A DNA stretch of 64,000 nucleotides. Origin: Mycoplasma sp. CAG:776 (lineage in GTDB: Bacteria > Bacillota_I > Bacilli_A > RF39 > UBA660). The stretch is from contig FR903078.1 of assembly GCA_000438195.1 (NCBI GenBank), positions 73,845 to 137,844 of the forward strand, read 5' to 3'. A model generated the notes under the pieces. That model did not search any database, was not told the DNA's origin, and saw only the letters and a list, made by a program, of their open reading frames with translations. The position numbers and the translations under genes are program-made. Below are positions 5,134 through 29,851 of this stretch, piece by piece; positions within the stretch are counted from its first letter, which is position 1; each line of letters starts with the position of its first letter.

Positions 5134-5621
5134 AATATCAAATCCTTAGCATTTTCTGTATCAATTTCTTTTGTTTCTAAATTTACTCGTTTTATATAAT
5201 AATTATTATAAGGAATATAATAGTTTTTGGCAAATGTTATTTGCAATAATTTCCCAGCTTTGTTATCTATAATATCTTTTACAACGCCTAAGTATTCATT
5301 ATTACAAATAATTTTCATTCCAATTAAATCTTCTAATAAATATTCATCTTTTTTTAAATTTAAATCCTCTTTATTAATATATACTTTTTGGCCTTTATAC
5401 TTTAATACCATATTGATATCAAATATTCCTTCTAAAGTAATCATATCAAATCCTTTATGAGGGCGATAAGTATTAATTATGTGTTCTTCTAAATCTTCAC
5501 CTATATATATTTTAAATCCTTTTTTAAAAACAAGATTTTTTTCGGCAAAATCACTTAATAGTCTTACTTCTCCTTTTATACCATGTGTATTTACTATTTT
5601 TCCAATATAAATAAAATTCAT
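5130..5621 (-). CDS. rimM: 16S rRNA processing protein RimM
   Basis: 163 aa; N-terminal IGKIVNTHGIKGEVRL motif. It overlaps trmD by 4 nt, the conserved rimM-trmD order. Confidence 0.9.
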   Translation of the reverse strand: MNFIYIGKIVNTHGIKGEVRLLSDFAEKNLVFKKGFKIYIGEDLEEHIINTYRPHKGFDMITLEGIFDINMVLKYKGQKVYINKEDLNLKKDEYLLEDLIGMKIICNNEYLGVVKDIIDNKAGKLLQITFAKNYYIPYNNYYIKRVNLETKEIDTENAKDLIL

Positions 5622-20312: not shown

Positions 20313-22064
20313 CTATTCTAAGATAGCCTTTATTCTTCTAACCCCAGCACTGCTTGCTTCTTCTTTCGTAATTTTAAAGTGTCCTAATACATTCGTGTGT
20401 GAAACATGAGGACCTCCACATATTTCTTTAGAAACATTACCAATTTTATATACGTTTACAATATCAGCATATTTTTCAATAAACATTGCTTCTGCTCCAC
20501 TTTTTATCGCTTCTTCTTTGCTCATTGTTTCCATAGTGACTGGTAAATCTTCTTTAATCCAATTGTTTACTAATTGTTCTACTTTTTCTTTTTCTTCTTC
20601 TGTTAACTTATGATCGCAAGAAAAATCAAAACGCATTCTCTCTTCATTGATATTGCTTCCTTTTTGATGAACATCTTGGCCAATTACTGTTTTTAAGGCT
20701 GCATTTAATAAATGAGTCGCTGTATGATATTTTGTTTCGATCTCACTATGTCCCATTAATCCACCTTTAAATTTTCCTTTAGAGGCCGTACGTGAAAGCT
20801 CTTGATGAGCTTGAAATTTTTCTTGGAACCCTTTTATATCAACTTTTAAATTTTTTTCTTTTGCCATTTCTTCGGTTAATTCGATTGGAAAACCATATGT
20901 ATCATATAATTTAAAAGCGTTATCTTTATCGATTATATCTCCATTTAGATGGTTTAACAGTTTATCAAATTCTCTTAATCCTTTTTCTAATGTACGATTA
21001 AATTTTATATTTTCATTTTTTAATACTTCTAAAACCATATTTTTATTTTCTTTTATTTCAGGATAATAGCTTTCATATTTTTTTAATACTTCTAAAGCAA
21101 TAGGCTCCATCCAGTTTTCAAGTGTATTAATTCCTAAATTTTTAGCATGACGAATGGCTCTTCTAATTAATCTTCTTAAAATATAACCCTGATCTGTATT
21201 ACTTGGTTTAATCCCTGCACGGTCAGCACTAATAAAGACACTGGTACGAATATGATCAGCAATAATTCGCATACTTTTTTCATTTCCTTCATATGGCTTA
21301 CCACTAATTTTTTCTATTGAAGATATAATCTCTTTCCAAATAGAAGTTTTATAGTTATCATTTACCCCTTCTAAAACCGCTACTACTCTTTCTAAGCCCA
21401 TTCCTGTGTCAACATTTTTTTGCGATAATTCAGTAATTTTTCCGTTTTCATCTTTATGAAACTCCATAAAGACATTATTCCATATTTCTACCCAACGATC
21501 ATCTTTCGGATCAAATACTTTAGGAATCTCATCTTCGCTTCGAAAATAAAAAATTTCTGTATCTCCTCCGCACGGACCAGCCTCTCCAGCGATCCAAAAA
21601 TTATCTTCTTCTCCTAAATATGCTATTCTTTCTTCTTTAATTCCTAGACTCTTCCATATTTCAGCCGATACTTCGTCTCTTGGAATATCATTATTTCCTT
21701 TAAATACAGTAACAGCTAAACGTTCTTTAGGAATATTTAATACATTAGTTAAAAAATCAAAACTGTATTCAATACTTTCTTTTTTAAAGTAATCTCCTAG
21801 GCTCCAATTTCCAAGCATTTCGAAAAAAGTATGGTGAGTTTTATCACCTATTTCATCTAAATCAGTTAAACGTACACACTTTTGGGCATCACATAATCTA
21901 TTCCCTTGGGGATGTTTTTCTCCTAATAAATAAGGAATTAAAGGTTGCATGCCTGCAGTATTAAATAACACGGTTGGATCGTTTTCCGGAATTAATGGAG
22001 CACTAGGAATTTCCACATGGTTATGTTCAACAAAATATTCTATAAATTTATCTTTTAAGTTCAT
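20313..22064 (-). CDS. alaS: Alanyl-tRNA synthetase, short form lacking the C-Ala domain
   Basis: 583 aa; class II AlaRS N-terminus (DPTVLFNTAGMQP, FFEMLGNWSLGDYFK) and editing-domain motifs HTATHLL and CGGPHV. The protein ends soon after the editing domain. Confidence 0.9.
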   Translation of the reverse strand: MNLKDKFIEYFVEHNHVEIPSAPLIPENDPTVLFNTAGMQPLIPYLLGEKHPQGNRLCDAQKCVRLTDLDEIGDKTHHTFFEMLGNWSLGDYFKKESIEYSFDFLTNVLNIPKERLAVTVFKGNNDIPRDEVSAEIWKSLGIKEERIAYLGEEDNFWIAGEAGPCGGDTEIFYFRSEDEIPKVFDPKDDRWVEIWNNVFMEFHKDENGKITELSQKNVDTGMGLERVVAVLEGVNDNYKTSIWKEIISSIEKISGKPYEGNEKSMRIIADHIRTSVFISADRAGIKPSNTDQGYILRRLIRRAIRHAKNLGINTLENWMEPIALEVLKKYESYYPEIKENKNMVLEVLKNENIKFNRTLEKGLREFDKLLNHLNGDIIDKDNAFKLYDTYGFPIELTEEMAKEKNLKVDIKGFQEKFQAHQELSRTASKGKFKGGLMGHSEIETKYHTATHLLNAALKTVIGQDVHQKGSNINEERMRFDFSCDHKLTEEEKEKVEQLVNNWIKEDLPVTMETMSKEEAIKSGAEAMFIEKYADIVNVYKIGNVSKEICGGPHVSHTNVLGHFKITKEEASSAGVRRIKAILE

Positions 22065-23998: not shown

Positions 23999-24029
23999 AC
24001 TTGCTATACTTACGCACCTCCATATAATT

Positions 24030-24187
24030 AAAAAGATAGAATAAATTATATTCTACCTTAAAAAACACATTAATAATCTTCACTATTATGGCTTTTTACC
24101 TATGAATATTCTTCATCAGGTGGAATATAATTCACTTTCCTCTTTCAATTTCTATATTATTATATCTTTATTATATTCATTTGTCAA
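24030..24187 (-). promoter_or_regulatory. infC operon promoter plus leader with attenuator hairpin (candidate L20 leader)
   Basis: TTGACA (24182-24187), a 17-nt spacer, then TATAAT (24159-24164). The leader contains the hairpin TAGAATA-TAATT-TATTCTA followed by a U-run (24035-24057) ahead of the infC RBS. Confidence 0.5.
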
Positions 24188-24226
24188 GAAAAAATGTTAT
24201 TTTTGCTTTTCCTTAAATGAAAAAGA

Positions 24227-24661
24227 CTAACTTAGCCTTTCTTTTACCATTTTACTAACCAAAGACATATCTGCATTGGTAATTCTAGTATTTAGTTCTT
24301 TCATAATTAATCCCATATCCTTCATACTAGTAGGATTTATTTCTTTAAATACTTGATCAATTATTTTACTAATTTCATCTGCTGTCATCTCTTCAGGTAA
24401 ATAAACACTTAAGATTTCTATCTCTTGTTCTAGTTTGGCAATTTCTTCATTTTTATTATACTTTGCAAACTCACTAATAGAATCCTTTCTTGTTTTTACT
24501 TGTTTTTTTATTACACTCATTACTTCATCATCATTAAGTTCATGCTTTTTACTTATAGAGTCTAATTGTAAAGCACTTTTTAGCATTCTTAAAACTGATA
24601 GTTTAAATTTATCACCATTTTTCATAGCCGTTTTTAAATCTTCAGCAATTTTACTATTCAT
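24227..24661 (-). CDS. GatB/YqeY-domain protein
   Basis: 144 aa; IAEDLKTAMKNGDKFKLSVLRMLKSAL is the typical YqeY N-terminus. Located downstream of rpsU, as in many Bacillota. Confidence 0.8.
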   Translation of the reverse strand: MNSKIAEDLKTAMKNGDKFKLSVLRMLKSALQLDSISKKHELNDDEVMSVIKKQVKTRKDSISEFAKYNKNEEIAKLEQEIEILSVYLPEEMTADEISKIIDQVFKEINPTSMKDMGLIMKELNTRITNADMSLVSKMVKERLS

Positions 24662-24670
24662 ATGATCACC

Positions 24671-24856
24671 TTAATAATTTCTATGCTTTCTTGCATTTTT
24701 AATTTGTTCTTTTTTTTCATTTCTTCTACGAACGCCTGGTTTTTCATAATGCTTTCTTTTCTTTAACTCTGAAGGGACACCGCTGCGGGCAACTTTTGTT
24801 TTAAATTTCTTTAATGCGCCATCAACATCTCCATTTTTAACTACTACTTTTGTCAT
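24671..24856 (-). CDS. rpsU: 30S ribosomal protein S21
   Basis: 61 aa; VVVKNGDVDGALKKFK...KHYEKPGVRRRNEKKE. Confidence 0.9.
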   Translation of the reverse strand: MTKVVVKNGDVDGALKKFKTKVARSGVPSELKKRKHYEKPGVRRRNEKKEQIKNARKHRNY

Positions 24857-24929
24857 TTACAAATCCCTCCCTTCATTTACTACAAATGATTATATCACCA
24901 AAGAACATGATAAGCAAGTTTTTTAGGCA

Positions 24930-25139
24930 CTAATTCACATTATTTTCTTCAATTTCTGGTATTATTTCTTCTCTTATTTCTAATTTTTGCTCTTTTAAAT
25001 CTTCTTTAATATCATTTTTTAAAATATTTAGAAAATTATTTTTATAATTATTAACTAATAACACTGTTAACATCATTAAAATAAAGATTAAAAATAAAGA
25101 ATAAACCATATAAGTAGCCATAAAACCTTTTTTATTCAT
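24930..25139 (-). CDS. Small single-pass membrane protein with an acidic C-terminal tail
   Basis: 69 aa; N-terminus MNKKGFMATYMVYSLFLIFILMML. It has its own extended -10 (TGaTATAAT) and RBS GGTGA just after the bacteriocin-operon terminator. Confidence 0.55.
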   Translation of the reverse strand: MNKKGFMATYMVYSLFLIFILMMLTVLLVNNYKNNFLNILKNDIKEDLKEQKLEIREEIIPEIEENNVN

Positions 25140-25166
25140 ATTATCACCATATGTTTTTATTATATC

Positions 25167-25196
25167 AAAAAAGGGTTCTAAGAAAAACCCTTTTTT
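25167..25196 (-). terminator. Rho-independent terminator ending the bacteriocin operon
   Basis: AAAAAAGGGTT-loop-AACCCTTTTTT perfect hairpin flanked by T/A runs. Confidence 0.8.
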
Positions 25197-25198
25197 AT

Positions 25199-25342
25199 TT
25201 ATTTTATTAAACGTTGGAGAGAGTATCCGATCATTTTACCTATTTCAATTGCTAAATCTAGTAATCTAGCAAAAGCATTAATTAGCGTTCCATTTATTGC
25301 TCCTCCATAAATTTTAATTAATTCATGATCATTTATTTTCAT
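25199..25342 (-). CDS. Double-glycine-leader bacteriocin precursor peptide 3 (47 aa)
   Basis: Hand translation gives MKINDHELIKIYGG|AINGTLINAFARLLDLAIEIGKMIGYSLQRLIK. RBS AAGGAG lies upstream. The leader matches the consensus at I-12, E-8, L-7, I-4, G-2, G-1. Confidence 0.8.
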   Translation of the reverse strand: MKINDHELIKIYGGAINGTLINAFARLLDLAIEIGKMIGYSLQRLIK

Positions 25343-25343
25343 A

Positions 25344-25481
25344 TTAGTTCTCCTTCGGATAAAAATATCCATAAATAACAGAGGCTATAAAGGTAATAGC
25401 AATAGCTATCCCTCCCAGTATTCCGGCAGCTGAAATTCCGCCATTTATATTATGTAGTTCATAATCATTCAAATGTTTCAT
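25344..25481 (-). CDS. Double-glycine-leader bacteriocin precursor peptide 2 (45 aa)
   Basis: Hand translation gives MKHLNDYELHNINGG|ISAAGILGGIAIAITFIASVIYGYFYPKEN. RBS AAGAGG lies upstream. The leader has L-12, E-8, L-7, I-4, GG. The mature part has GxxxG-type motifs. Confidence 0.85.
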   Translation of the reverse strand: MKHLNDYELHNINGGISAAGILGGIAIAITFIASVIYGYFYPKEN

Positions 25482-25482
25482 T

Positions 25483-25614
25483 TTAACCTCTTAAATTCTT
25501 TAACGAGCAAATGGCTTTTACTAACGAAATTACACTAGATATTAAGTTAGTAACAACACTAAAAAGGCCTCCTCCACTACAGTTTATCAATTCTTTATTT
25601 TCCATTCTTTTCAT
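25483..25614 (-). CDS. Double-glycine-leader bacteriocin/pheromone precursor peptide 1 (43 aa)
   Basis: Hand translation gives MKRMENKELINCSGG|GLFSVVTNLISSVISLVKAICSLKNLRG. A strong RBS (GAGGAGG) starts right after the accessory-gene stop. Confidence 0.8.
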   Translation of the reverse strand: MKRMENKELINCSGGGLFSVVTNLISSVISLVKAICSLKNLRG

Positions 25615-25628
25615 AAGTTCCTCCTCTT

Positions 25629-26039
25629 TTAAAACATTTTATTCTTTATTTTTGTTATAATTCTTTGTTTATTATAATAAAAATTTAAATCTACTATTTC
25701 ATTATTATTTAAATTATTAGAAGTAGATAATACCATTTCATAATATGTTGTATAATTTTGCTCATTTGCTTTTAATTCTTTTTTTATGATTTCATATTTT
25801 AAATTTTTATTATTGATTGTAATTAAAGAAAAATCTAAGTTGGTTGGTATAGCGGTAGTAATTGTACAAATATTGGTACAGCTAACAATTCCTTTAGCTT
25901 GATAGTGATCATAGACTTCTACTTTATTCATATAAGATACTAGAGTCAATAGAATTACAATAATAAAAATGACTATTAAAAATCCCAGTTTTGGTTTTAT
26001 TTTTAAGAATGCTATTTTATTATTAAAAATATCTAACAT
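25629..26039 (-). CDS. Membrane-anchored accessory protein of the bacteriocin exporter (very short, HlyD/LcnD position)
   Basis: 136 aa; one N-terminal TM (LGFLIVIFIIVILLTLVSY) then a predicted beta-rich domain. Overlaps the ABC gene by 7 nt. Confidence 0.6.
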   Translation of the reverse strand: MLDIFNNKIAFLKIKPKLGFLIVIFIIVILLTLVSYMNKVEVYDHYQAKGIVSCTNICTITTAIPTNLDFSLITINNKNLKYEIIKKELKANEQNYTTYYEMVLSTSNNLNNNEIVDLNFYYNKQRIITKIKNKMF

Positions 26040-28087
26040 AACTCTCCTAGACGAATAATCTTTGTAAATTTATCCTCAACATTTTTATGGGTAACATAAA
26101 TTAAAGTATTATTTTTAAAATACGTAAAAATATTGTCTAAAATTTCTTTTTCCATATTAACATTCACTTCACTTAATGCTTCATCTAAGATAATTATCTT
26201 AGCCTTTTTTAGCAAGGCTCTTGCTAGAATAATCCTTTGCTTTTCTCCTCCACTTAAGTTATTTAGAGAAGCATTTATAATAGTGTTATATCGATTTGGT
26301 CTTTTATTTATGATTTCTTCTAATTTACAAATTTTACATACTTGTTTAAATTTTTCATCTGAAATATTTCGGAAGCATATGATATTCTCGCGAATTGTTC
26401 CTGTAAAAAGTTTTTCATTTTGGCCTACATATAGGATATTTTCTCTGATAGCTTTTAAACTATAATCACATTCACTCGTATTATTAAATTCTATATTTCC
26501 AGAATAAGTGCCTAAACTTCGATAAATAAGTTTGCAGATGGTACTTTTACCACTTCCCGATGGACCACTTAACAAAACTTTTTCTTTACTTTTTATAGCG
26601 AAATTCACTTTATTTATTATTTTATTAAATAAATCATAAGAATAAGTTAAGTCTTTTACTTCAATATTTGGATCTATTAAATGCTTTAACCCTCCTTGTT
26701 CTTTTTCTATTTCAGTTGCTAAAAATTCACTTAATTTACTAAATGAGGCTTTTAAATAATTATATTTTGGCATTAAATCAACTAATTTCTTTACTGGATT
26801 AAATAAATAGAGAATAACACTATTAAAAGTAACTAAACTTAATAGTTCTAATTCCCCTTTATAAATTAAATAAATTCCTAAAGTTGTAATCATAAATAAT
26901 CCGACTTCATAAATAAAATTCTTCAATAGTTCAATTATATTTAAAATGCTCATAAAAGAAAAATTGCTTTTTAGCATTAATATTAATTTATTTTCAATTC
27001 GGTATATAAATTCTCGAACTAAATTTAAATTTTTAATACTAAAATTCATGTCTACATTTTCAATTAATGTTGTGTTGAAATTTGTTGTTGTTTCTATATT
27101 CTCTTTTACTTTATGATAGATCACTTTACTAAATAAAAGTCCTACTATTAAATAAATAATAATTATAAAACAAAGAAGAAAAAATAATTTACTATTTATT
27201 AAAAATAGTGTTACTATCGCACCAAATATCAAAATCGTATTTAAAATTAAGGTAGCAAAAATTTCAGAAAATAAATTTTTTGTATTACTTAATTCATCAA
27301 TTCTGGTTACTATTTCTCCAGTTGTACGATTTTGAATAAATTTCAAAGGGAGTTTAAATATATGCTCTAAGAACATAGAAAATAATTCGGTGTCTAGATT
27401 TTTGTTAAGATAATTGAGGTAATAGGTTTTTATATAATTTATGATAATTTTAAAAAGAAGTATAATAAAAAAGAGAATTACGATAAATTTAATGAATTTA
27501 GCTTCTTGCCCTTCTTGAATACAAGATATACTTATTTGAAAATAAAAATTTCCAATTATGGTTAAAAGCATTAAAACAATATTAGTAATTATGATTTTTA
27601 AAAACAAATATTTATGTTTTATTAATAATTTACCAAATAATCCTACTATGGAAAGTTCTTTGGTATATCTTAATATATTATTACTAGGTGTTGCTAATAT
27701 TAAAATGTTATCCCAAATATTCAGAAATTCCTGAATTAACATTTTTACTTTTCCTTTAGCCGGGTCCATAAGATAAACATATTTTTCGTTTGCTTTATAG
27801 ATTACTACAAAATGTTGTAGCCCATTTGTTAGTTGAACATGAGCTATAGCAGGGAAATAAATATTTTCGTCTAAAATGTTTTCTGCTTTTACTCCAATCG
27901 CATCAAATCCATAACCACATAAAGCTTTTATTATATGAAATGCTGTTGTTCCGTTCATATTTGTACAAGTATCATCCCTTACTTTCTCTAATGGAACATA
28001 GCCACCATAATACTTTAAAATGGATTCTATACAACAAGCGCCACAATCTTTTAAATCACGTTGTTTTACTACTTCTATCTTAGGCAT
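26033..28087 (-). CDS. Bacteriocin-processing ABC exporter with N-terminal C39 peptidase domain
   Basis: 684 aa; C39 catalytic Cys in QRDLKDCGACCIESILKYYGG, with His (LQHFVVIYK) and Asp (YLMDPAKG). Six TM helices. Walker A GPSGSGKST, signature LSGGEKQR, Walker B IIILDEALS. Confidence 0.92.
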   Translation of the reverse strand: MPKIEVVKQRDLKDCGACCIESILKYYGGYVPLEKVRDDTCTNMNGTTAFHIIKALCGYGFDAIGVKAENILDENIYFPAIAHVQLTNGLQHFVVIYKANEKYVYLMDPAKGKVKMLIQEFLNIWDNILILATPSNNILRYTKELSIVGLFGKLLIKHKYLFLKIIITNIVLMLLTIIGNFYFQISISCIQEGQEAKFIKFIVILFFIILLFKIIINYIKTYYLNYLNKNLDTELFSMFLEHIFKLPLKFIQNRTTGEIVTRIDELSNTKNLFSEIFATLILNTILIFGAIVTLFLINSKLFFLLCFIIIIYLIVGLLFSKVIYHKVKENIETTTNFNTTLIENVDMNFSIKNLNLVREFIYRIENKLILMLKSNFSFMSILNIIELLKNFIYEVGLFMITTLGIYLIYKGELELLSLVTFNSVILYLFNPVKKLVDLMPKYNYLKASFSKLSEFLATEIEKEQGGLKHLIDPNIEVKDLTYSYDLFNKIINKVNFAIKSKEKVLLSGPSGSGKSTICKLIYRSLGTYSGNIEFNNTSECDYSLKAIRENILYVGQNEKLFTGTIRENIICFRNISDEKFKQVCKICKLEEIINKRPNRYNTIINASLNNLSGGEKQRIILARALLKKAKIIILDEALSEVNVNMEKEILDNIFTYFKNNTLIYVTHKNVEDKFTKIIRLGELC

Positions 28088-28241
28088 CTATTTTCCTCCC
28101 TTCACTACTATTTATTACCCCTTTTTTATTCATTTCCTTTATTTTTTTAGAATATGGGTTCATATTTTAAAAGGAGTTCCACCGTTCGACAATTTTTGCA
28201 TTTTTTTTGGATATACTATACAACTCGAAAGGAGGAATACT

Positions 28242-28691
28242 ATGCAAGATGGCATGTTAATTTCAAAGCTTAGATCAGAGCACAATCTATCACAAAAAGA
28301 TATGGCACGATTTCTTAAAGTAACTTTATCATCTTATAAACTTTATGAAGCCAATATTCGACCAATGAGAATAGAAGAATTAAATCAACTTAGTAATTAT
28401 TTTAAAATTTCTTTAAATACTTTACTGGGATTAAGTAAGAATATAAATGAATTTGGTCCGTTTGATCTTGATTTTAAATATTTGAAGTTTAGTCTAAAAT
28501 ATGTACGTAAAATACATAGAGTTACTCAGCAAGAACTGGCAAAAGAATTTAAAATTTCTATCCCAACTATTCATCGATATGAGAGTAATCCACAGAATTT
28601 AAAAGTAGATTATTTACATTTCTTTGCTACTAAATTTCATGTATCAATTGATTATATTTGTGGTAAAACACTCAAAAAAGAAGTACTCTAA
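28242..28691 (+). CDS. Tandem (double) XRE-type HTH transcriptional regulator
   Basis: 149 aa from ATG 28242 (RBS AAAGGAGG). There are two HTH_3-like repeats (NLSQKDMARFLKVTLSSYKLYE..., VTQQELAKEFKISIPTIHRYE...), each ending in a S(L/I)(N/D)(T/Y).(L/C)G motif. The track ORF from 28020 adds an implausible N-terminus. Confidence 0.8.
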   Translation: MQDGMLISKLRSEHNLSQKDMARFLKVTLSSYKLYEANIRPMRIEELNQLSNYFKISLNTLLGLSKNINEFGPFDLDFKYLKFSLKYVRKIHRVTQQELAKEFKISIPTIHRYESNPQNLKVDYLHFFATKFHVSIDYICGKTLKKEVL

Positions 28692-28693
28692 GA

Positions 28694-29851
28694 TTATTTG
28701 AGTACTTCTTTTAATAAAACTTCATCATCTTTAAATAAATTATATTTTTTTACTATAAATCTAAATATCACTTTTAATAAAGCAATGCATGGTGTTGCAA
28801 TAATCATACCAACAATACCAAAGTAATGCGCAAATACTAGTAACCCAATCATAATTGTTACAGGATGTAGATGAGTTGTTTTGCTCATCACAATTGGTTG
28901 TAAAACATAATTTTCTAATAATTGAACTACTACACAAATGATTAAAACTGCAATTCCTGTAATGGTTCCTTGACTAAAGCCTACAATAACTGCAGCCGCT
29001 CCACCAATGTATGGTCCAATATATGGAATTAAATCGGTTAAGCCACAGAATAATCCGAATAATAACGGTGCATTTAATCCTGTTATTGCAAAACCAATTG
29101 TATCACCTACAAATACCATAAACGCGACTAAAAGAGTTCCACTTATGGTCTTTCTTACTTCTTTGCCAATATCAGTTATTAATACTTCAATTTCATATTT
29201 ATTCTTGTTTGGTACTAATTTTAGAAAATGCTTTGTAATTGCGTCAAAATCAAACAACATATATAGACCAATTACTAAACTTATTAAAATAGTTCCTAAT
29301 CCAGATGCCAGACTTCCTAATATTCCTATTAATGACGTTGGAAGAGAATTAGTAAAGTTAATTAAATAGCCACCTACGCCATCAAATAAATTATCTTTAA
29401 ATCCTGTTAAATCTATGCCACTAATAGATATTTGATTAATAAAATCATCTATAAAAGTACTAAATTTGTCCAAAATAGATGGAAGAGTTGCAATTAATTC
29501 GTTAATTTGCGTATATAAAGTTGGAACTAACATCCTTAAAAAGAAATAAATAAATAGTAAAAATACAGTATATACTAGTAAACTTCCTACGATCCGAGGA
29601 ATTCCTTTTTTATTTAACTTCTTGACAATGGGATTAAATAACCACGCAATGACAAATCCAATAAATAATGGAGCTAAAACTTTAAGAAAGGTCAAAAGAA
29701 TATTCCAAACATTTAAATTTTTTAGAATAATTGTACCACACAAAACAATTGCTACTATCATAACAATATATAATAATTTTAAAATCTTTTTAGTTAATGA
29801 TACAACTTCATTTACTTCTTTATTGTCAATTTCCTTAAAGTTTTTCTTCAT
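28694..29851 (-). CDS. AI-2E family transporter (PerM/YhhT-like permease)
   Basis: 385 aa; 8 TM and the typical C-terminal motif LIPYIGPYIGGAAAVIVGF...LENYVLQPIVMSK. Confidence 0.85.
   Translation of the reverse strand: MKKNFKEIDNKEVNEVVSLTKKILKLLYIVMIVAIVLCGTIILKNLNVWNILLTFLKVLAPLFIGFVIAWLFNPIVKKLNKKGIPRIVGSLLVYTVFLLFIYFFLRMLVPTLYTQINELIATLPSILDKFSTFIDDFINQISISGIDLTGFKDNLFDGVGGYLINFTNSLPTSLIGILGSLASGLGTILISLVIGLYMLFDFDAITKHFLKLVPNKNKYEIEVLITDIGKEVRKTISGTLLVAFMVFVGDTIGFAITGLNAPLLFGLFCGLTDLIPYIGPYIGGAAAVIVGFSQGTITGIAVLIICVVVQLLENYVLQPIVMSKTTHLHPVTIMIGLLVFAHYFGIVGMIIATPCIALLKVIFRFIVKKYNLFKDDEVLLKEVLK

Follow-up and report, generated by a model that had tools for sequence, protein, structure and literature searches.

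The stretch of DNA analyzed here, referred to as the window throughout, comprises 64,000 nucleotides of contig FR903078.1 from Mycoplasma sp. CAG:776 and carries on its minus strand three small genes, P1, P2, and P3, which encode precursor peptides with double-glycine (GG) leaders and lie behind the gene of a peptidase-containing ATP-binding cassette (ABC) transporter (PCAT). P2 and P3 probably constitute a two-peptide bacteriocin of the class IIb type, which would be processed and exported by the PCAT, and P1 would be a third exported peptide that was acquired later. As far as can be judged from the sequences, the system is a credible new member of the well-known class IIb kind. A preliminary description of the region, which had been made without database searches, proposed a new two- or three-component bacteriocin. 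From this proposal the two-component part is retained, as P2 and P3 resemble a two-peptide system, but the three-component part is not, because P1 is clade-specific and does not co-vary with the other two, so that the three peptides are no single unit.

According to the proposed mechanism, one operon, which consists of a promoter, the PCAT exporter gene, a gene for a 136-aa membrane protein, P1, P2, P3, and a terminator, would give rise to three unmodified, leader-cleaved peptides. The C39 peptidase domain of the exporter would recognize the leaders of 14–15 residues and cut behind the GG, i.e., after G15 in P1, after G15 in P2, and after G14 in P3, whereupon the mature peptides of 28, 30, and 33 residues would be exported (predicted monoisotopic masses of 2930.70, 3131.70, and 3628.09 Da for P1, P2, and P3, respectively). 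P2 as a neutral membrane helix and P3 as a cationic amphipathic helix would be the complementary halves of the class IIb-type bacteriocin and may associate helix to helix in the membranes of related competitors, which would lead to leakage, probably via a conserved membrane receptor. P1 would have joined this old two-peptide cassette in the clade of the window only and most likely acts alone as a second membrane-active peptide. Candidates for the protection of the producer are the 136-aa protein and a separately transcribed 69-aa membrane protein.

Three Genes for Double-Glycine-Leader Peptides and Their Exporter

The three minus-strand open reading frames (ORFs) are arranged back to back, and their coordinates and all three translations agree exactly with those of the preliminary description. 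Each ORF has its own Shine-Dalgarno sequence, as had been stated there (GGAGG for P1, AGAGG for P2, and AAGGAG for P3), and the gaps from the preceding stop codon amount to 14 nt for P1 and to 1 nt each for P2 and P3. In a mechanical ORF list, P3 appears as a 57-aa ORF that starts from an upstream ATG at 25372. This start was rejected, since the added codons would overlap P2 and several relatives have stop codons in this stretch, and the ATG at 25342, with AAGGAG 8 nt upstream, was taken as the P3 start instead. An alternative genetic code with TGA as a Trp codon was also discarded: all genes are clean under table 11, and the three peptide genes end in TAA. The designation of the genes as unannotated fits only the ORF track that was used at the time, because their exact sequences are deposited in GenBank as “unknown [Mycoplasma sp. 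CAG:776]” (CDF12264.1 for P1, CDF12263.1 for P2, and CDF12262.1 for P3). Gene callers found the sequences of P1, P2, and P3 on 303, 312, and 524 contigs, respectively.

The leaders match the GG consensus in the way that had been described, with a hydrophobic residue at -12, E at -8, L at -7, and C or I at -4, followed by GG; the leaders of P2 and P3 (15 and 14 residues) both show E-8, L-7, I-4, and GG. In a six-frame pattern scan, P1, P2, and P3 were the only GG-leader ORFs of the whole 64-kb window, and none was found in any of 30 shuffles.

Twelve species-level genomes and further metagenome contigs show the same gene order as the window, namely frr, AI-2E transporter, divergent XRE regulator, C39-ABC exporter, 136-aa protein, P1, P2, P3, 69-aa protein, rpsU, and yqeY. 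This window clade includes uncultured Tenericutes UMGS1172, several “Bacilli bacterium” metagenome-assembled genomes, and Candidatus Caccenecus avistercoris from chicken. The 12 genomes were recovered through the accessory gene itself, so that they show retention of the module and not its universality. Across the lineages of the clade, the ratio of nonsynonymous to synonymous substitution rates (dN/dS, Nei-Gojobori) was 0.18, 0.055, and 0.058 for the mature parts of P1, P2, and P3, respectively, and 0.22–0.59 for the leaders, which means that the mature parts are more constrained than the leaders. Synonymous divergence within the clade was 0.7–1.7. P1, P2, and P3 are real protein-coding genes, which are conserved and under purifying selection, with the mature parts as the constrained parts. 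The idea that P1 is unique, which came from a word-indexed protein search that returned one cluster, was dropped: this search reached close relatives only, and the syntenic loci hold diverged P1 homologues in all clade members. A divergent homologue of P1 was found in locus L021.

The statement that the peptides are encoded directly behind a C39-peptidase ABC exporter was confirmed, as the genes are co-oriented and tightly packed, the exporter is full-length, and its active-site motifs align with those of PCAT1. In Pfam, the exporter matches Peptidase_C39 (5e-33), ABC_membrane (2e-28), and ABC_tran (3e-28). It shares the domain order and full-length homology with PCAT1 of Clostridium thermocellum (4RY2, E 2.8e-98) and ComA of Streptococcus (8HF4, E 4.5e-84), whereby its DCG, HF, and DP motifs align with those that surround the catalytic Cys, His, and Asp of PCAT1. 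The ATPase motifs, as read from the sequence, are intact (Walker A GPSGSGKS, signature LSGGEKQR, and Walker B ILDEA). Unlike these PCATs, the window exporter is paired with the 136-aa protein instead of an HlyD-like partner. The NCBIfam model TIGR01193 scored best and was aligned end to end, and the model of the Mycoplasma “Mbov_0121” type gave 314.6 bits, which is below its cut-off of 500. The exporter is predicted to work like a member of TIGR01193 but lies outside the curated subfamily.

For the 136-aa protein and six distant counterparts, no Pfam or NCBIfam match was found at E ≤ 1. A counterpart of 137–163 aa occupies the same position wherever the region is covered, except for locus L031, in which no such ORF is listed. 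The AlphaFold2 (AF2) single-sequence model of the 136-aa protein, which has a predicted local distance difference test score (pLDDT) of 73, consists of an N-terminal transmembrane helix, a beta domain, and a C-terminal helix. A Foldseek search with this model gave no match at E ≤ 0.001, and membrane-fusion proteins appeared only at E 0.075–0.3, with Spr0693 as the best match of this kind (E 0.075). The protein is not claimed to be a reduced HlyD, as no significant Foldseek match was obtained. By its position only, it is a putative mini accessory (or immunity) protein.

The peptide properties that we computed bear out what had been claimed on charge and hydrophobicity. P1 has a net charge of +3 and small-xxx-small motifs (S11xxxS15 and S15xxxA19); its C-terminal SLKNLRG is near-invariant across the clade, and its Cys is not conserved there. 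P2 has a net charge of 0 and a grand average of hydropathicity (GRAVY) of 1.13, and it does contain the AxxxG/GxxxG motifs that had been pointed out (A4xxxG8 and G5xxxG9), as well as G9xxxA13 and S19xxxG23. Its conserved motif is [G/S]xxxG-Y-x-x-P, of which the second G and the P are kept in at least 90% of the family alignment. P3 has a net charge of +2, a helical hydrophobic moment of 0.50, and the motif G21xxxG25 (mature numbering); its AF2 model is one continuous helix from residue 5 to 46, with a pLDDT of about 92 in the mature part.

P2 passes the cut-off of the NCBIfam model TIGR03949, which describes the class IIb lactobin A/cerein 7B family (26.3 bits, cut-off 21.5), with a shallow alignment that is limited to the leader and the Gly/Ala-rich start (residues 2–33). 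TIGR03949 was the top model for all 11 P2-family peptides tested and scored above the cut-off in 7 of them. The conserved C-terminal [G/S]xxxG-Y-x-x-P-x-K-C of P2 is not part of this model. Lactobin A and cerein 7B have about 50 or more residues and are far more glycine-rich than P2. P1 and P3 have no match to TIGR03949 nor to any other Pfam or NCBIfam family. Thus, the view that the mature peptides are unlike any known bacteriocin holds for P1 and P3 but not for P2. A sequence search of the PDB with mature P1 and the precursors of P2 and P3 returned chance-level matches only. The hhalign comparison of P1 with P3 revealed a weak resemblance (probability 16%, E 0.0016), and those of P1 with P2 and of P2 with P3 gave background scores. 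In accordance with the preliminary description, a YGNGV box is missing from all three mature peptides, which also lack a match to Pfam Bacteriocin_II (class IIa, pediocin-like), and the Ser/Thr/Cys pattern of lanthipeptides is missing as well. No peptide-modifying enzyme domain, as for lanthipeptides or other ribosomally made, post-translationally modified peptides, was found among the called genes of the syntenic loci.

The P2/P3 Pair and the Later Addition of P1

A search with a profile of P3 relatives against 1.84 billion representatives led to the identification of at least 103 clusters (50% identity) at E ≤ 1e-3, almost all of which are GG-leader peptides of 46–59 aa. The mature consensus of this family reads aISgTlINAxxRxxxxxxxxGRxxGSSIRRxxxxNxC. 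Among 82 aligned members, G39 (mature G25) is invariant and G35 (mature G21) is kept in at least 90%, which makes this the most conserved mature feature. At least 90% of the P3 family have a Cys at the C-terminus, and the GG is invariant across both the P2 and the P3 family. There is no curated Pfam or NCBIfam model for the P3 family and no name from any source, and a literature search for the peptide motifs GSSIRR, GTLINAF, and IDGYVRP returned nothing.

The distant loci, which bear L numbers here, were found through P3, and wherever the contig covers the region they carry the same module as the window, with the exception of L031. In these low-GC gut Bacilli, the module consists of an exporter (681–699 aa), a small membrane protein (137–163 aa), and a P2-like and a P3-like peptide. 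It is usually located directly upstream of rpsU-yqeY; in L035 it lies elsewhere. The hosts include organisms with SpoIIIAH, YabP, and YqfD, i.e., spore-formers. P2 and P3 are adjacent in every window-clade genome and in the distant lineages examined, except for L031, where a 154-aa ORF lies between them. P1 occurs in none of the distant loci, and P1 together with the 69-aa gene is also missing from the nearest outgroups, L033 and L042. By exporter identity the lineages form two groups, and S21 and YqeY divide them in the same way, which argues for long vertical inheritance. Between L033 (4849–4992) and L029 (3854–3988), mature P2 is 70% identical, compared to 49% for S21 and 35% for the exporter. 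A tblastn search with P2 and P3 against 72,556 plasmids gave no match, to which the low-complexity filter may have contributed. In the spore-former locus L042 (3056–3641), two P2-like/P3-like pairs are arranged in tandem, which yields four GG-leader peptides, with the second pair being shortened.

P2 and P3 co-evolve. Within the window clade, the pairwise divergence of mature P2 correlates with that of mature P3 with an r of 0.93, which is mostly due to one split into a type A and a type B and not to many independent events. The divergence of P1 tracks that of the exporter, the 136-aa protein, and the 69-aa protein (0.6–0.7) and not that of P2/P3 (r 0.20–0.27; partial r negative). In a mirror-tree test, neither the 69-aa nor the 136-aa protein co-varied with P1, P2, or P3 after the exporter divergence had been removed. 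From the comparison of the loci, P2 and P3 are evidently an old pair and P1 a clade-specific later addition, and the three peptides do not appear as one evolutionary unit.

Both partners of the pair end in a single Cys in at least 10 lineages (type B, which includes L011 and L014, as well as L028–L031, L033, L035, L037, and pair 1 of L042), and the Cys is missing from both partners in the type A clade of the window and, independently, in L040/L041. These paired cysteines in the relatives suggest a covalent two-peptide form, which, to our knowledge, has not been described for class IIb. Furthermore, in distant relatives a membrane ORF of 55–59 aa overlaps the stop codon of the P3-like gene (Table 1). 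Its C-terminal half resembles that of P3, final Cys included (YGTYVGSFIRNIGTNICP vs LGRSVGTALRRIISRNICPL; hhalign probability 55%, E 1.2e-4). It could be that this ORF is a membrane-anchored P3 mimic that acts as an immunity factor; the window clade has no such ORF.

It might be, though we consider this doubtful, that an ancient, undescribed two-peptide system exists in low-GC gut Bacilli, of which the window contains a derived copy. This system would have become fixed upstream of rpsU and been passed on vertically in at least two deep groups of lineages, and its ancestral peptides would have been disulfide-coupled. The parts of such a system would be the PCAT exporter, the mini membrane partner, a hydrophobic peptide that ends in ..GxxxGYxRPLKC, and an amphipathic peptide that ends in ..GRxxGSSIRR....NxC. 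The ancestral form would then be a covalent heterodimer, coupled via the single C-terminal cysteines, and a small membrane protein, the C-terminal half of which mimics the amphipathic peptide, would be a decoy-type immunity factor. Under this tentative scenario, the two cysteines and the mimic would have disappeared from the window clade, and P1 and the 69-aa protein would have been added there. The ancient system could also have a conserved, non-antagonistic function. The scenario of disulfide coupling rests on few independent events.

The Two-Peptide Bacteriocin Reading and Its Alternatives

Class IIb bacteriocins are synthesized as precursors with a GG leader of 15–30 residues, which is cut after the GG, and depend on a dedicated ABC transporter with an N-terminal peptidase; both peptides carry GxxxG (or AxxxA/SxxxS-like) helix-helix motifs, an immunity gene shares the operon with the genes of the two peptides, and both peptides are needed in about equal amounts for antibacterial activity (PMC2850506, which we used for the definition of the class). 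Gene adjacency, GG leaders, a dedicated C39 exporter, and GxxxG in both peptides are present in P2/P3 as sequence features. An indirect hint that P2 and P3 may be needed jointly comes from the co-variation of their mature parts and from the C-terminal Cys, which both partners mostly have or lack in common. The resemblance of P2 to class IIb peptides, which had already been suspected, is upheld by the adjacent partner gene, the GxxxG motifs, the hydrophobic character next to a helical amphipathic partner, and the co-evolution of the two. Like the lactococcin G operon (lagA-lagB-lagC-lagD-lagE; PMC2850506), the window operon combines two adjacent small genes that encode peptides with GG-type leaders with a C39 ABC exporter gene and an “accessory” gene. 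As in other class IIb bacteriocins, GxxxG or GxxxG-like motifs are found in both peptides, and a hydrophobic and an amphipathic cationic partner of 30–33 residues are combined. In contrast to the characterized members of the class, the window operon has the exporter gene first and the peptide genes last, its accessory protein has 136 aa and is unrelated by sequence to the HlyD-type proteins of roughly 450 aa, and a third GG-leader peptide is present. Mature P3 and P1 have no sequence similarity to any characterized member. Furthermore, the window locus is chromosomal, belongs to the core genome, and is vertically inherited instead of being carried on a plasmid or island.

Several observations weigh against the class IIb-type reading. 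Mycoplasma sp. CAG:776, the host, is uncultured. The class leads one to expect an immunity gene that is co-transcribed with the peptides, and no recognizable one was found; the terminator lies directly behind P3. The exporter reached 359.9 bits with TIGR01193 and thus did not attain the cut-off of 523.85, and no relation of the 136-aa protein to HlyD-type accessory proteins (LcnD/ComB/PlnH type) could be detected. The shallow TIGR03949 alignment of P2 and the single type split behind its correlation with P3, both described above, belong here as well, and the second pair of L042 breaks the cysteine rule, since only its P2-like member has the Cys. Moreover, the cassette is part of the core genome, is syntenic next to rpsU across deep lineages, and is vertically inherited; such stability is unusual for antagonistic toxins and therefore leaves room for a non-killing role. 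The conservation of P2 between L033 and L029 likewise appears unusually slow for a presumed toxin.

These latter points lead to the alternative that the exported peptides have a physiological role, be it as a membrane or surface peptide pair, in cell-cell signaling, or in host interaction, with the machinery merely being the export route. We consider this unlikely, but it gains some weight from the unusual stability of the cassette and its location in the core genome. It would be in line with the position of the module, which is fixed directly upstream of rpsU-yqeY in each of the two deep groups, spore-formers included, with the match of the exporter groupings to those of S21 and YqeY and the long vertical inheritance that this implies, with the strong purifying selection and a mature P2 that is better conserved than S21, with the lack of a recognizable immunity gene, and with the presence of the module in 12/12 of the species genomes recovered (found via the accessory gene). 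However, every recognizable feature is that of a class IIb bacteriocin, with TIGR03949 as the top model for P2, and the peptides of the window clade diverge faster than their housekeeping neighbors. The type switching, the tandem duplication of the pair in L042, and the gain of P1 are typical of toxin loci, and core-genome bacteriocin loci do exist, e.g., streptococcal blp.

A further possibility, and a rather improbable one, is that P1, P2, and P3 are obligatory parts of one three-component bacteriocin, in which P1 is needed together with P2 and P3. The three genes do follow one another within one operon, with spacings of 1 nt, and this arrangement suggests that the peptides are produced in equimolar amounts; 12/12 window-clade genomes keep all three peptides, and P1 has its own small-xxx-small motifs and the weak hhalign resemblance to P3 (16%, E 0.0016). 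On the other hand, the P2/P3 module is conserved without P1 in many distant lineages, and a switch of P2/P3 from one type (A or B) to the other leaves P1 unchanged, as reflected in its low correlation with them. In addition, the known multi-peptide unmodified bacteriocins, such as garvicin KS and aureocin A70, are leaderless and do not have GG leaders.

It is also quite improbable that P1 is a secreted induction pheromone, which switches on the production of P2/P3 in the manner of plantaricin A or EntF. Class II induction peptides have GG leaders, are cationic, comprise about 19–27 residues, and use the same exporter. The near-invariant C-terminal SLKNLRG of P1 looks like a recognition element, and P1 occurs together with an XRE regulator and a small membrane protein that are likewise specific to the clade, which resembles the CylR1/CylR2 arrangement of the enterococcal cytolysin. 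As in the plantaricin loci, where the GG-leader inducer PlnA occurs next to two-peptide bacteriocins, several GG-leader peptides share one exporter, and one of them could be a signal. Unlike these loci, the window has no histidine kinase or response regulator, P1 is part of the exporter's transcription unit, and the regulator is an XRE protein with a double helix-turn-helix (HTH). No histidine kinase or response regulator was found among the conserved neighbors, which speaks against the pheromone that the preliminary description had offered as an alternative. Furthermore, the XRE regulator consists of two bare HTH domains without a peptide-binding (TPR) domain, no NCBIfam pheromone model matches P1, P1 is conserved across species instead of being split into pherotypes, and its gene is located inside the operon it would induce and not in a separate regulatory unit. 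Overall, the three-component and the pheromone alternatives are disfavored because P1 evolves independently and sensor genes are missing.

That P1, P2, and P3 are merely frames left open by chance in AT-rich DNA between genes, as their shortness (43–47 codons) in a genome of about 26% GC, where short ORFs are common, might suggest, is refuted by the comparative data, since frames, lengths, and order are kept across 12 species at a synonymous divergence of 0.7–1.7 and a dN/dS of 0.06–0.24, each ORF has a strong Shine-Dalgarno sequence, the leader motif counts 3 vs 0 in the shuffles, and the P3 family comprises over 100 clusters.

The host is part of a group of gut Bacilli from humans and animals that is uncultured and genome-reduced, and a literature search yielded no description of a bacteriocin for Mycoplasma sp. 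CAG:776 or the related order RF39. If P2 and P3 are active, they would represent a synthesizable, unmodified two-peptide antimicrobial from this group of gut Bacilli and would serve as the anchor of a family, with at least 103 clusters, which annotation pipelines now leave as “hypothetical”. The unusually stable position in the core genome would bear on the question of how long vertical descent can keep a bacteriocin system.

Operon Boundaries, Regulation, and Neighboring Genes

The positions of the genes and signals of the region are compiled in Table 1. The 136-aa gene overlaps the stop codon of the exporter gene. Upstream of the exporter gene, the sequence TTGTCGAAC at the -35 position of the promoter-like site is invariant across six lineages in the alignment. 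A consensus promoter scan gave 30 sites vs 33 expected, which is the chance level in AT-rich DNA; therefore, the promoter is supported solely by its cross-species conservation, and for the same reason no internal promoter before P1 is claimed. In the 5' untranslated leader, the blocks AAAAATAAAGGAAA and GGTAATAAATAGTAGTGAAGGGAGG, the latter of which includes the Shine-Dalgarno sequence, are invariant across six lineages although nearby synonymous sites are saturated. An Rfam search of positions 24000–29000 found nothing at E ≤ 1. It could be that the invariant leader blocks and TTGTCGAAC are operator sites or a leader RNA element.

The XRE-type regulator matches Pfam HTH_3 (4e-16) and HTH_19 (8e-14) and holds nothing besides its two HTH domains. 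Its gene is present and divergent in all window-clade loci and missing from the distant modules, which makes it a candidate regulator of the exporter-peptide operon in the window clade only.

A hairpin with a T-run follows 3' of P3 in 11/11 window-clade lineages. In the three distant modules that were checked, a hairpin with a T-run with changed stems is found after P3 or, in L037, after the next small ORF. Behind the terminator, the extended -10 element TGnTATAAT is kept in 11/11 lineages (TGATATAAT in nine, TGTTATAAT and TGCTATAAT in one each). Since the terminator and then this element precede the 69-aa gene in the window clade, the gene is regarded as a separate transcription unit. The N-terminal 45 aa of its product have a dN/dS of 0.055 in the clade, and the gene occurs in the same set of genomes as P1 and is missing from the distant modules. 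No Pfam or NCBIfam family was found for the 69-aa protein, its exact sequence is not contained in a collection of 15 billion proteins, and hhalign comparisons with the small transmembrane ORF of the relatives and with P1, P2, and P3 gave background scores. The 69-aa protein is a weak candidate for an immunity protein or a sensor, and its membership in the system is uncertain.

Table 1. Genes and signals of the peptide operon and its surroundings (positions refer to the window, or to the named locus of a relative where a locus number is given).
Feature	Positions	Strand	Remarks
P1 precursor	25483..25614	(-)	43 aa; 15-aa GG leader and 28-aa cationic hydrophobic peptide GLFSVVTNLISSVISLVKAICSLKNLRG
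P2 precursor	25344..25481	(-)	45 aa; 15-aa GG leader and 30-aa neutral, membrane-helix-like peptide
P3 precursor	25199..25342	(-)	47 aa; 14-aa GG leader and 33-aa amphipathic cationic helix
PCAT exporter	26033..28087	(-)	684 aa; C39 peptidase, six-helix membrane domain, ATPase
136-aa single-pass membrane protein	25629..26039	(-)	overlap of 7 nt with exporter stop codon
Promoter-like site of exporter-peptide operon	28164..28192	(-)	TTGTCG, 17 nt, TAAAAT
5' untranslated leader	28088..28160	(-)	blocks AAAAATAAAGGAAA and GGTAATAAATAGTAGTGAAGGGAGG
Intrinsic terminator	25167..25196	(-)	11-bp stem and T-run, directly after P3
Extended -10 element for 69-aa gene	25159..25167	(-)	TGATATAAT
69-aa single-pass membrane protein	24930..25139	(-)	acidic tail; own promoter
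XRE-type regulator	28242..28691	(+)	149 aa; divergently transcribed; two HTH_3/HTH_19 domains
55–59-aa membrane ORF of distant relatives	L028 375-542; L029 4153-4332; L032 150-317; L038 2614-2787; L035 about 5153-5323		

Up to a distance of about 6 kb on both sides, the neighbors are frr, the AI-2E family transporter gene, the XRE gene, rpsU, yqeY, infC, rpmI, and rplT. In the related lineage L006 (8087–9805), a DDE transposase gene separates the yqeY region from infC as an insertion and lies beside an additional S11-like gene, which shows that the otherwise stable neighborhood can be disrupted. The gene for ribosomal protein L20 (22710–23258, minus strand) encodes 182 aa with a C-terminal Rho_N/SAP-like tail, and in the syntenic loci the L20 product matches Pfam Ribosomal_L20 and Rho_N. 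An alanyl-tRNA synthetase-like gene is located at 20313–22064 on the minus strand; its product, for which tRNA-synt_2c and tRNA_SAD were found in the syntenic loci, has only 583 aa, which is well short of the usual bacterial alanyl-tRNA synthetase.

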